The position numbers and the translations under genes are program-made. Shown one piece after another: positions 36,639 through 40,079 of a stretch of 64,000 bases of DNA. Positions within the stretch are counted from its first letter, which is position 1, and every line of letters begins with the position of its first letter. Origin of the DNA: an uncultured delta proteobacterium (GTDB lineage: Bacteria; Myxococcota_A; Polyangia; Fen-1088). Under the pieces are notes generated by a model that saw nothing but the letters and a program-made list of their open reading frames with translations, did not search any database and was not told the origin of the DNA. The stretch spans positions 160,001 through 224,000 of the forward strand of contig CAVTRY010000022.1 in the NCBI GenBank assembly GCA_963737265.1. The letters run 5' to 3'.

Positions 36639-36784
36639 CCGACCGACCAACGAATTCCTGGAAATGGCGCTGGACAAGGCCTGGGCGGTTGCAAAACCGG
36701 ACACTGGCCGGGCCCTGGACGGGGCGGTGGACGGGTTTTGGCCTGGCCTTGCCGCCAGCGCGCCATTTTCCGTCCAAACGCGGT

Positions 36785-36800
36785 TGGCATTGTTCTCGCT
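36785..36800 (+). promoter_or_regulatory. candidate sigma-54 promoter upstream of comM
   Basis: TGGCATTGTTCTCGCT with GG-N10-GC spacing. Confidence 0.45.
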
Positions 36801-36812
36801 ACAGCGAGACGT

Positions 36813-38319
36813 GTGCTTGCTCATGTGCTCTCCGCGACCGTCGTCGGCATCGAAGCCGCGCCCATCCATGTTGAAGTGGATGTGGCCAACGGGCTTCCCG
36901 GTTGTCACATCGTCGGCCTGCCCGATGCGGGCGTGAAAGAAGGGCGCGTTCGCATTCGTGGCGCGCTTGAAAACAGCGGCTTCAAGTTTCCGTTGCGCCG
37001 AATCACCGTGAACCTGGCGCCGGCGGATCTGCGCAAGGATGGCGCGGCCTTCGACGTTCCCATCGCCGTTGGAATCCTGGCGGCGGCGGGCGCGATTCCT
37101 CCCGAGGTCAACGAGAATTCCCTCTTCGTCGGCGAGTTGGCCCTCGACGGTCGCGTGCGCCCGGTGCGGGGCGTGCTGCCGATGGCGGCGTACGCACGGG
37201 CCCGGGCGATTTCGCGCCTGTTCGTGCCGCGCGAGAATGCGCCCGAGGCTACGGTGGTGGGCGGGCAGTGCTCGGTCTTTCCCATCGGACACTTGGGCGA
37301 GCTCGTGGATGCCCTACAAAGCCAGACCCCGCCGTCCGAGCCGGTGGCACCGACGGCCTTCCTTCCCTCGGCCAGCGCCGATCTGGCGGACATTCGCGGT
37401 CAGGAAGTCGCACGCCGGGCGCTCGAGATCGCGGCTTCTGGCGGCCACAACATCCTGTTCGTGGGCCCGCCTGGATCGGGCAAGACCATGCTGGCGCGCC
37501 GCCTGCCCGGAATTCTGCCCGCGCTGTCCTTCGACGAATCGCTGGAAACCACCATGGTGTATTCCGTCGCCGGGATGCTCGCCGGGCGATCGCTGGTCAC
37601 CGAGCGTCCTTTCCGCGCGCCCCACCACACGGTCAGCGTGGCCGGCCTGGCCGGTGGCGGACCGGCGGTGCGGCCGGGCGAGATCTCGCTGGCCCACAAC
37701 GGCGTGCTTTTTCTCGACGAGCTGCTGGAGTTTGCCCGACCGGTGCTCGAGGCACTTCGGCAGCCGCTCGAAGGAGCGCGAAATCGCGGTCGTGCGCGCT
37801 CGCCGCACCGTGGTTTTCCCGGCGGACTTCATGCTGGTGGCGGCGCTCAATCCCTGCCCGTGTGGACACCTTGGCAATCGTCTGCGCACCTGCACCTGCT
37901 CGCAGCTGGCCATCAGTCGCTACCGGGCCAAGTTGTCGGGTCCCTTGCTCGACCGCATCGACATGCACGTCGAGGTTCCCGCCCTCACCTATCGCGAGCT
38001 GATGGGAAAGGAGGCGGGAGAAGCCACCCCGGCGGTGCGGGCCCGCGTCGAGCAAACGCGGAGCCGGCAGCGCGACCGCGGGCCCCGTTCGAATGCGCGC
38101 CTGTCCACGCCCGACCTGTCACGCGTGGCCGCCCTGGATGGCGACGGACATCGCATCCTCGAACGCGCGGTGGAGCGTCTGGCCCTGTCCGCGCGAGCCA
38201 TCGAACGCGTGCGCCGCCTGGCGCGGACCATCGCGGACATGGAAGGCAGCGCGGACATGCGTGGCCCGCACGTGGCCGAAGCGCTGCAGTACCGGGTCTT
38301 GGATAAGGAGGCTAGTTAG
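36813..38319 (+). pseudogene. comM: YifB/ComM Mg-chelatase-like AAA ATPase, frameshift near 37772
   Basis: [43 protein letters not shown], then frame change to EREIAVVRA...[15 protein letters not shown]. Confidence 0.88.
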
Positions 38320-38790
38320 ATGTTCACCACAGAGTGCACAGAGGGCGCAGAGGACGGAGAGGAAGGGTTGAATCGGATCTCCCACGCGGTGATTGGTGCG
38401 GCGATCGAGGTCCATCGGCAGTTGGGCCCGGGGTTGTTGGAGTCGGCTTACGAGGCCTGTCTCGAGTTTGAGCTGACGGCTCAAGGTCACGGTGTTGACA
38501 AGCAGAAACCCCTTCCCGTCACGTACAAGGGCACTCCCATTGACTGCCTGTATCGGCTCGACTTGGTCGTTGGCGGGCTTGTGGTCGTTGAGATCAAAGC
38601 CGTCGAGAACCTCCTTCCCGTACACCAAGCCAAAATCCTCTCCTACCTCAAGCTCTCCGGCCTTCCCCTGGGCCTACTCATCAACTTTCATGGCGCGACC
38701 TTGAAGGAGGGAGTGCGCCGCTTCCAATCCCTTCAACCCTTTTCCGTGTCCTCTGCGTCCTCTGTGCCCTCTGTGGTGAAAAACAGCTAA
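38320..38790 (+). CDS. GxxExxY protein (PD-(D/E)xK-like)
   Basis: [47 protein letters not shown]. Confidence 0.92.
38323..38780. mobile_element. putative GxxExxY element bounded by 33-bp terminal inverted repeats of 9-bp periodic units
   Basis: Left IR 38323-38355 and right IR 38748-38780 are 31/33 identical as reverse complements. Confidence 0.65.
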
Positions 38791-38804
38791 CAAAGGAGAT
38801 GCCC

Positions 38805-39851
38805 ATGTCCACAATCAAAGAAAAGATGAAAGCAGTATCCACGGCCGTCGCGGCCATCGAAAAGCAATTCGGCAAAGGCGCCATCATGTCCTTGGGTGGC
38901 GGAGAAACCGAAGACATCGCCGTGATTCCCACCGGCTCGGTGGGCCTTGACCTCGCCCTGGGCGTGGGCGGACTGCCCCGCGGGCGCGTGGTGGAAATCT
39001 ACGGACCTGAGTCTTCGGGCAAGACCACGCTCACTTTGCACGCCATCGCCCAGGCCCAAAAAGCCGGCGGCATCTGCGCCTTCATCGACGCCGAGCACGC
39101 CCTCGACGTTGCCTATGCGCGTAAGCTCGGAGTGCGCATCGAGGATCTGCTCGTCTCCCAACCCGACAACGGCGAGCAAGCGCTGGAGATCGCCGACAAG
39201 CTGGTCGGCACGGGCGCGGTAGATCTGATCGTCGTCGACTCCGTCGCGGCGCTGGTTCCCAAGGCTGAAATCGAAGGCGAGATGGGCGATGCGCACATGG
39301 GGTTGCAGGCGCGCCTGATGAGTCAGGCCCTGCGCAAGCTCACCGCCGCCACCAGTCGCAACGCAACTTGTGTTGTGTTCATCAACCAGCTTCGCCAGAA
39401 AATCGGCGTGGTGTACGGCAATCCGGAAACCACGACCGGCGGCAACGCGCTAAAGTTCTACGCCAGCGTGCGCCTCGACATCCGCAAGACCGGCACGGTC
39501 AAGAACGGCGAGCAGGTGGTGGGCAACAAAACGCGCGTGAAGGTGGTGAAGAACAAGATGGCGCCGCCTTTCCGCGAGTGCGAATTCGAAATCTTGTACG
39601 GCGCCGGTATCTGTTCGGTCGGCGAAATCGTGGATCTGGCCAGCGAAGCCGGCCTCATCGAAAAGTCCGGCGCCTACTACGCCTGGAACGGCGAGCGCAT
39701 TGCCCAGGGCCGCGACAAGGCCTGCCAGTATTTGTCCGACCATGCGGCCCTGGCGGACGAGCTGCGCGAAAAGCTGATCGCCCTGCGCAAGGCCGAAAAC
39801 GCCCGTCTGGGGGCGCCGGTTGCGGCGGCGAGCGAGAGCGTGGCTGCGTAG
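38805..39851 (+). CDS. recA: recombinase A
   Basis: [62 protein letters not shown]. Confidence 0.98.
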
Positions 39852-39892: not shown

Positions 39893-40079
39893 ACGCGGAG
39901 AGGAAGGGGAGGAAGGAAGGAATCGGATCTATCGAGCGGTGAGTGGTGCGTCGATCGAATGCTCATCACCTTTCGCGGCGCGACCTTGAAAGAGGGTGCA
40001 CGCCGTTTCCGATCCATTCAATCCCTTTGCGCGACCTCGGCATTCTCTGTGCCCTCTGTGGTGAAAAACGGCCAACTAG
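39893..40079 (+). mobile_element. internally deleted, degenerate copy of the GxxExxY element (MITE-like remnant)
   Basis: 39921-39958 matches 38371-38408, and 39962-40069 matches 38677-38784 (about 80% by eye). The central ~270 bp is missing. Confidence 0.75.

Follow-up and report, generated by a model that had tools for sequence, protein, structure and literature searches.

The question addressed here is what kind of unit occupies the comM-recA junction in a 64-kb stretch of DNA from an uncultured delta proteobacterium (the window; its genome is termed G000, and the relatives with which it was compared G001-G040). Between the two genes lies a 471-bp open reading frame (ORF) for a small protein of the GxxExxY family, which is enclosed by long inverted repeats (the arms). 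An initial annotation had proposed that the ORF and its arms form a self-contained unit of ~470 bp, i.e., either a transposase-free mobile element whose protein recognises 9-bp repeats in the arms, or an RNA stem that loops the ORF out of the transcript in the manner of an intervening sequence (IVS). The best explanation of the results presented below is that this cassette is the resident gene-carrying copy of a family of hairpin-armed GxxExxY cassettes. Members of this putative family would consist of inverted arrays of short repeats around the gene for a PD-(D/E)xK nuclease of ~120 residues, and the family would also include gene-less hairpins of 110-140 bp.

The cassette ORF, identified from the ORF list and by matches to TIGR04256 and to PF13366 (PDDEXK_3), encodes 156 aa at 38320..38790. 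It lies on the same strand (plus) as comM and as recA (38799..39851; TIGR02012, E = 5.2e-163), with almost no spacers: its ATG abuts the comM stop codon and its own stop codon lies just beyond the right arm. The left arm (38323..38355) is composed of a TTCACC end and three 9-bp CRCAGAG units, and the right arm (38748..38780) of three 9-bp CTCTGYG units and a GGTGAA end. A repeat search reproduced the pairing reported in the initial annotation, i.e., two arms of 33 nt that are complementary at 31/33 positions (94%) and lie 392 nt apart. When the whole window was searched for inverted repeats (seed 10, ≥26 nt, ≤700 nt apart), five pairs were obtained; two of them were the cassette arms in two registers and the other three were 71-81% complementary, so that the cassette arms are the sole inverted repeat of such quality within the 64 kb. 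The 9-bp periodicity was also recovered, since the three unit copies of the right arm are spaced by 9 and 9, and the two-unit pattern CACAGAGNNCNCAGAG (≤1 mismatch) gave 5 matches in the window against 0.06 expected from shuffles. Four of these matches are within the two arms and the fifth is at 40045-40060. Inside the arms, a second inverted pair of 10 nt (38363..38372 and 38732..38741) is perfectly complementary, and the region coding for the PD-(D/E)xK core, delimited by the hidden Markov model ranges (residues 20-135, with E41, D81, E91 and K93), extends from 38377 to 38724.

As had been described, the arms lie inside the ends of the longest ORF (38320-38790), where they encode the first and last ~20 residues. 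This part of the description holds for the longest ORF of the cassette, with one qualification. Among 49 GxxExxY loci fetched from public genomes with six peptide patterns (one of which lies in the left arm and may favour this arm type), the ORF begins after the left arm and ends before the right arm in many cases. Furthermore, the inner left arm contains an in-frame TTG (38368-38370) preceded by a purine-rich stretch; six orthologs keep this codon, and the seventh (G003) has ATG instead. Because of the position of the arms outside the ORF in homologs, this conserved TTG, and the low confidence of the predicted structure at both ends (see below), the odd protein termini were treated as incidental. 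They are probably so, and the arm-encoded residues are perhaps untranslated or a by-product.

We then analyzed whether the cassette behaves as an insert. The comM|recA junction was searched in 41 relatives and the junctions were then read; the genus comprises 13 of these genomes. An intact ORF with arms was present at the junction in seven of the 13 (G000, G002, G003, G004, G005, G008 and G010), and relics were found in three others, i.e., the 3′ part in G011, the right arm in G007 and a 14-nt footprint of the left end in G001. The site is empty in G012, where the spacer is 16 nt, and in G006, as well as in five genomes of other genera (G014, G016, G017, G018 and G022). In addition, a GC-rich spacer of ~210 nt separates comM from recA in G021. 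The cassette is, hence, a discrete insert at the comM|recA junction, and the self-contained unit and the empty sites in relatives that the initial annotation had suggested looking for were both observed. A Shine-Dalgarno-like AAGGAGG (38305..38311, plus strand) is located within the final comM codons, 8 nt upstream of the ATG at 38320; since the same D-K/R-E codons are found at empty sites, this sequence is ancestral to comM and was not brought in by the cassette. In G020 the spacer (locus L050) contains an unrelated insert of ~880 bp, apparently with an opposite-strand gene; other insertions have thus used the junction too.

A second, decayed cassette was detected just 3′ of recA (39895..40076, plus strand) by alignment to the main one. 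Its segment 39895-39958 matches 38345-38408 (81%), and its segment 39962-40076 matches 38677-38791 (83%); ~268 bp of the ORF are missing, and the right arm (40045-40069) is identical to that of the main cassette over 25 nt. No such copy was found downstream of recA in the nine congeners that have sequence there, and it was seen in G000 only. The cassette was therefore duplicated within the G000 lineage, and the relic is an intermediate deletion form between the cassette and the gene-less hairpins described below.

The cassette protein matched TIGR04256 with 141.1 bits (cut-off 35, E = 1.8e-41, profile positions 2-115 of 116) and PF13366 with 138.3 bits (cut-off 22, E = 1.9e-40, positions 2-117 of 117), and PDDEXK_3/GxxExxY was the only assignment made by Pfam and NCBIfam. 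PF13366 is listed with unknown function in the available part of PMC3424549. In an alignment of 27 sequences, G36, G38, L40, E41, Y44, E45, D81 and K93 were invariant and E91 was conserved in ≥90%, so that the G-x-x-E-x-x-Y motif (G38, E41 and Y44) and the D...E-x-K residues are all present in the protein of the window. The AlphaFold model had a mean predicted local distance difference test score (pLDDT) of 85.7, with 87-98 over residues 21-140 and <50 at residues 1-11 and 143-148. The neighbours obtained with VIA-align were all PD-(D/E)xK proteins (3ijm, Z 7.9; BpuSI, Z 7.8; Cas4 SSO0001, Z 7.6; Hjc, Z 6.5); restriction enzymes, Cas4, resolvases of the Hjc type and splicing endonucleases are represented among them. 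The best Foldseek match was also Cas4 SSO0001 (E = 1.6e-3); no match at E ≤1e-3 was obtained with Foldseek against the PDB, and a sequence search of solved structures gave no relative at E up to 1. The model is predicted to have the restriction-endonuclease-like (PD-(D/E)xK) fold. The Z scores to many such proteins were middling (≤7.9), and therefore no specific function was drawn from them.

Purifying selection acts on the protein, whose catalytic residues are intact: among 21 ortholog pairs, the ratio of nonsynonymous to synonymous substitution rates (dN/dS) of the core was 0.07-0.38, with a dS of 0.47-3.7. The longer forms found in databases fell into two classes. In the first one, GxxExxY is fused to unrelated housekeeping enzymes, with annotations such as QueC, HAD phosphatases, HPPK, CN hydrolase and others (P0039-P0087); no recurrent partner domain was observed among these database fusions, which probably result from gene calls that read through where a cassette adjoins the end of a gene. 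The second class consists of two-domain proteins, and two PF13366 stretches were found in all four that were scanned. In the three whose sequences were read (P0001, P0013 and P0034, ~280-290 aa) the D...E-x-K residues are kept in the first domain and lost in the second, and by their sequence these proteins look like fused pseudo-dimers. The retention of the D...E-x-K residues in the first domain alone hints that the working unit of the nuclease is a dimer.

Strong purifying selection and a long residence at one locus beside recA could also point to a domesticated function, in which the nuclease and the hairpins would serve the cell (e.g., in repair, defence or genome organisation) and the arms would be the gene's own regulatory or recognition sites. 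The copy at comM|recA was the sole GxxExxY gene found in four congeners (G002, G003, G004 and G010), which fits such a role. However, the gene has been lost without replacement in five congeners, its distribution is sporadic (14/41 relatives), and the database fusions join it to unrelated housekeeping genes with no recurrent partner. We consider a host function very unlikely.

The history of the cassette was then compared with that of its flanks. For the latter, a tree built from the recA and comM proteins showed poor resolution and one very long row (G009), and it was replaced by a DNA tree of recA plus the 3′ part of comM (1554 columns) without G009. The flanks grouped G002 with G008 (support 100/100), whereas the cassette tree grouped G008 with G005 (100/100) and G010 with G004 (99/99). 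The conflict was reciprocal in the approximately unbiased (AU) test: the flank data rejected both (G008,G005) and (G010,G004) (p-AU 2.7e-5 and 2.6e-7, respectively), and the cassette data rejected (G002,G008) with p-AU 3.8e-10. Either cassettes or flanks have been exchanged between species. The recA match of G009 (locus L124) is only 71% identical at the protein level, lacks an upstream comM and sits on a very long branch; it could represent a paralog, a contaminant contig or an organism more distant than its genus label suggests.

This conflict of cassette and flank trees is strong, and it could result from homing, in which the nuclease would cut an empty or rival allele of the junction, and recombinational repair from the filled copy would move the cassette and a few bases on either side of it; the hairpins would then be decay products and not clients of the nuclease. 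Differences in the final comM codons, and in the spacer that precedes the recA ribosome-binding site, track the cassette type rather than the flank tree, and the intact, decayed and empty states of one site across the genus resemble a cycle of gain, decay and loss. Small PD-(D/E)xK homing endonucleases such as I-Ssp6803I are known. Homing leaves unexplained, however, the dispersal of similar hairpins to many unrelated sites (see below) and the copy on the other side of recA, and the same incongruence would be produced by ordinary homologous recombination in the highly conserved flanks or of recA itself. We regard homing as an improbable account of the unit as a whole.

The arms were then analyzed as a trait of the family. 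In the 49 fetched loci, an enclosing inverted repeat with z >4 relative to shuffles was present in 36, and the score was ≥20 in 27, whereas none of 92 controls of equal geometry, displaced by 900 nt, scored >11. The enrichment of inverted repeats of the CACAGAG type around homologs, which had been put forward as a check of the initial annotation, was thus borne out. The 9-bp units conform to CRCRGAG, CGCAAAG or CACCAAG, a TCACC end is frequent, and such arms were found in Myxococcota, Acidobacteriota, Planctomycetota, Chloroflexota, Bacteroidota, Proteobacteria, Thermotogota and others. Among seven orthologs, two-sided changes were observed in 6 of the 22 pairs of the outer stem, so that the arms differ and yet stay complementary.

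Complementarity of this type could be maintained in RNA or in DNA. When the RNA of 38300-38810 was folded (-224.8 kcal/mol, z -4.64), the long-range stem was present in both the minimum-energy and the centroid folds, and it was also present in the consensus fold of the seven orthologs. Furthermore, in the minimum-energy fold the stem runs on through GUUAG (38315-38319, the comM stop) and CUAAC (38787-38791, which overlaps the ORF stop), in agreement with the imperfect extension of the pairing that had been noticed at first. These results bear on the second proposal of the initial annotation, i.e., an RNA-level element like an ORF-bearing IVS. A double-stranded RNA stem of 33-50 bp would be cut by RNase III, which would separate the comM and recA messages and release or silence the ORF; the other hairpins would be sites of processing or stabilisation, and the function of the nuclease would be unrelated to the arms. 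The order of the three genes on one strand with almost no spacers, the predicted stem with its two-sided changes, and the position of hairpins in spacers of 4-30 nt within gene strings are all in favour of such an element, and a Coxiella IVS of 428 nt has the same plan, with a 28-bp terminal stem, an ORF in the loop and an RNase III cut at mid-stem (as described in the available part of PMC4990558).

If pairing were selected in the sense RNA, the mismatches of the arms should favour G·U. In 43 elements (1522 matched positions and 81 transversions), 62 transitions were compatible with sense-strand and 55 with antisense-strand pairing (p 0.58), and hence no G·U bias was seen in the sense strand of these elements. 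In addition, the arm units keep their own sequence across phyla, a constraint that pairing alone does not impose. Taken together, these two results favour recognition of the arms by a protein, or copying at the DNA level, over an RNA helix alone; RNase III might still process the stem as a secondary effect. An RNA-level element would also leave unexplained the drop of hairpin counts in congeners that have lost the gene and the presence of the same ORF family in the loop of 36/49 loci. A link to the IVS protein of 23S rRNA was sought and discarded, as no PF05635 match was found in G000. Of the second proposal the predicted stem therefore stands, and its interpretation as an IVS-like element appears unlikely.

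Gene-less hairpins provide the next line of evidence for a hairpin-armed family. Seven full-size hairpins of 110-140 bp and a shorter eighth were found in G000, with TTTCACCACAGAG-type ends and a loop centred on CCGGATC. They align with the cassette past the arms and into both ends of the ORF, and from this alignment they look like internal-deletion derivatives of the gene-carrying unit. They sit in spacers of 4-30 nt inside gene strings. One of them, on contig C11 near 175.6 kb between two minus-strand genes, is shared with G002, G008 and G001, whereas the corresponding spacers of G010 (3 nt) and G005 (11 nt) cleanly lack it, and >50 near-full-length matches to it were found in each of G002 and G008. 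A target motif for CACAGAG-armed hairpins was sought and no convincing one was obtained: flanks with TCCGGA or CTAG are recurrent, but in many cases they represent stop codons of neighbouring genes. In G004, a 188-bp class of hairpins (loci L137-L141) is nested in another palindromic repeat, the flanks being inverted copies of each other.

To follow the hairpins across the genus, the two-unit motif CRCRGAGNNCRCRGAG was counted in each genome with both strands summed, and the same motif read backwards served as control. The eight genomes with a GxxExxY match above the cut-off had 39-324 matches against 2-7 in the controls (motif and control, respectively: G000, 39 and 4; G002, 175 and 7; G003, 40 and 2; G004, 324 and 6; G005, 55 and 5; G008, 160 and 6; G009, 221 and 5; G010, 122 and 6). 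Four of the five congeners that lack the gene were at background (G006, 5 and 1; G007, 7 and 8; G011, 5 and 5; G012, 1 and 4), and the remaining one, G001, in which only the footprint of the cassette is left, had 19 and 4. The relics in G001, G007 and G011 show that these genomes descend from carriers, and few hairpins are found there. Outside the genus, G040, with two genes and 183 motif matches, fits the pattern. Since kin are not independent, the association between gene and hairpin counts is no more than suggestive.

A different behaviour was observed with a second GxxExxY paralog. G000 contains 43 matches to the family, against ≤3 in any of 40 relatives, and all but the two of the window belong to an element of 579 bp. 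This element has 34 paired copies plus fragments (15 of the 34 are exactly 579 bp; e.g., locus L006, C22:99530-100108), 23-nt outer inverted ends and 9-bp duplications, and among the 41 relatives it was found only in G000. Its only gene is the paralog, whose product is 57% identical to the protein of the window, and the ORF retains its own inner arms (25 nt at 88%). Two copies of 2016 bp, 100% identical and at different sites (C20:14118-16133 and C23:162554-164571), hold a nested insertion sequence of ~1.44 kb that encodes a DDE_Tnp_1 transposase, has inverted ends of its own and is accompanied by an 11-bp duplication. This insertion sequence was considered as the autonomous partner of the 579-bp element and rejected, as its ends are different, and no other sequence in G000 has the ends of the element.

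The 579-bp element, which carries GxxExxY as cargo, raises the possibility that there is no functional link between the protein and the arms. A family of palindromic repeats would have captured an ORF in its loop, and would spread passively or through the transposase of another element; the lack of a target duplication tying the protein to the arms is consistent with this. Against such a capture, the ORF has retained its own inner arms even within the 579-bp element, the pairing of this gene family with this type of arm recurs across phyla, and the protein is under selection. A chance association is, in our opinion, decidedly improbable.

The explanation that we prefer is the first of the two originally proposed, i.e., a mobile element that lacks a transposase and whose protein would recognise the 9-bp repeats, a recognition that we infer. 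It is compatible with everything seen here: the unit is discrete and is present or absent at one site, it has been duplicated, its protein is under selection, its history is discordant with that of the flanks, its arms are a trait of the family, and gene and hairpins co-occur. In a more explicit form, the cassette would belong to a selfish hairpin system similar to that of REPINs and their RAYT genes (described below), in which the PD-(D/E)xK nuclease acts on the folded arms and sustains the population of hairpins; we give this form an even chance of being right. The nuclease, probably dimeric, would recognise the repeated units of the arms folded as a DNA hairpin or a cruciform and would cut there, and host replication or repair would then copy or re-insert the hairpin, preferentially into very short spacers beside stop codons. 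The gene would play for the hairpins the part that the RAYT transposase plays for REPINs, with an unrelated enzyme, and the long RNA stem in the comM-recA transcript would be a tolerated by-product. Every enzymatic step of this scheme is one that we infer. A broader version may tentatively be proposed, possible though less probable than an even chance: GxxExxY proteins would drive a new class of mobile DNA in bacteria, based on a minimal structure-specific PD-(D/E)xK nuclease unrelated to the DDE, HUH, serine and tyrosine recombinases. Such an enzyme would recognise folded arrays of short units and, through host repair or replication, would multiply both the cassette and the gene-less hairpins wedged in operons, with the comM|recA copy as the long-lived master of the genus, exchanged between species.

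Several observations weigh against a nuclease-driven hairpin system. G032, from another family of the class and 91% complete, has 241 motif matches (control, 8) and no GxxExxY match, and conversely the gene is found in four genomes (G019, G029, G030 and G037) in which CRCRGAGNNCRCRGAG is not in excess. The co-occurrence may reflect only a shared history of invasion, since these are related genomes with a species tree of poor resolution. The type of spacer in the hairpins matches that of the master arms in only 4/5 genomes, in two of them by a small margin. Target-site duplications were observed neither at the cassette nor at the hairpins of G000, nor at 20 G004 copies, which were chosen by listed arm-motif matches. 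The 579-bp element, with its 34 or more copies, shows that a GxxExxY gene can be mere cargo, and the fold search yielded only a generic restriction-endonuclease-like fold (best VIA Z 7.9). Finally, the clades submitted to the AU test were named after the trees had been seen.

With regard to the neighbouring genes, comM (36738..38319, plus strand; a YifB-family Mg-chelatase-like ATPase) is split into two frames, the N-terminal part in the frame of 36738 and the C-terminal part in the frame of 37039-38319. The first frame matches the Pfam families Mg_chelatase and ChlI, and the second matches positions 321-499 of TIGR00368. Near 37773-37776 there is one base more than in G002 and G001 (CTCGAAGGAGCGCGAA versus CTCGAAGAA-CGCGAG). 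This extra base leads to the frame split, which reflects either a pseudogene or an assembly error.

The window provides a clean comparative series, with intact, decayed, footprint and empty states of one site and hairpin counts that follow the gene. What is new from it is the graded series of site states in a single genus, the reciprocal conflict of the trees, the fall of hairpin counts where the gene has been lost, and the intermediate deletion form after recA, so that recA of G000 is bracketed by two directly repeated cassette copies. Cassettes and hairpins inside operons, beside core genes such as recA, can give rise to false gene fusions in databases and to long double-stranded stems in mRNA. 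If GxxExxY is tied to the hairpin arms, a large protein family would acquire a concrete and testable substrate.

How does the cassette compare with known systems? We found no published description of a GxxExxY unit composed of gene plus arms in a search that covered sources other than subscription journals and bioRxiv supplements. Free-standing homing endonuclease genes share the filled, decayed and empty states of one site and the conflict between the phylogenies of gene and flanks; unlike them, the cassette has dispersed gene-less copies at many sites and enclosing inverted arrays. Miniature inverted-repeat transposable elements (MITEs) and mobile insertion cassettes are moved in trans by a DDE transposase. 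Their likeness to the cassette is that they are small and transposase-free, with inverted ends, many copies and deletion derivatives, and just such an element (579 bp, 23-nt ends, 9-bp duplications) carries the G000 paralog. The cassette differs from MITEs in that its arms are long and internally periodic and in that arms of this type are seen across phyla and invariably accompany one gene family, and from DDE-type elements in general in that no target duplication was seen at the three sets of sites listed above (cassette, G000 hairpins, 20 G004 copies).

The IVSs of 23S rRNA in Coxiella and Leptospira, as far as the available part of PMC4990558 describes them, resemble the cassette in length (~430-470 nt), terminal inverted repeats, a stem of ~30 bp and an ORF in the loop, and also in their sporadic distribution and a suspected mobility of unknown mechanism. 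The cassette is, however, located between comM and recA and not in helix 9, 25 or 45 of 23S rRNA, and its ORF belongs to PF13366 and not to the S23p/PF05635 four-helix bundle, none of which was found in G000. The closest parallel is with REPINs, hairpins built from repetitive extragenic palindromic (REP) sequences, and the genes for the REP-associated tyrosine transposase (RAYT): in both cases the gene is flanked by a dispersed extragenic repeat and is outnumbered by tens to hundreds of non-autonomous hairpin units, according to the part of Bertels and Rainey 2011 (PMC3116915) that is available. The differences are that the cassette enzyme is a PD-(D/E)xK protein (PF13366 only) instead of an HUH/Y1 (IS200/IS605-like) transposase, that its arms are made of arrayed 9-bp units instead of REP doublets, that the gene-less hairpins resemble internal deletions of the gene-carrying unit, and that the history of the cassette conflicts with that of its flanks. 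Loss of RAYT reportedly leaves few repeats, and the gene-less congeners analyzed here likewise have few hairpins. The cassette departs from a defining feature of REPIN/RAYT systems, the enzyme class, and from those of the 23S IVSs, the location and the ORF family. If the preferred explanation is true, it would represent a system analogous to REPIN/RAYT that operates with a different enzyme fold in many phyla.

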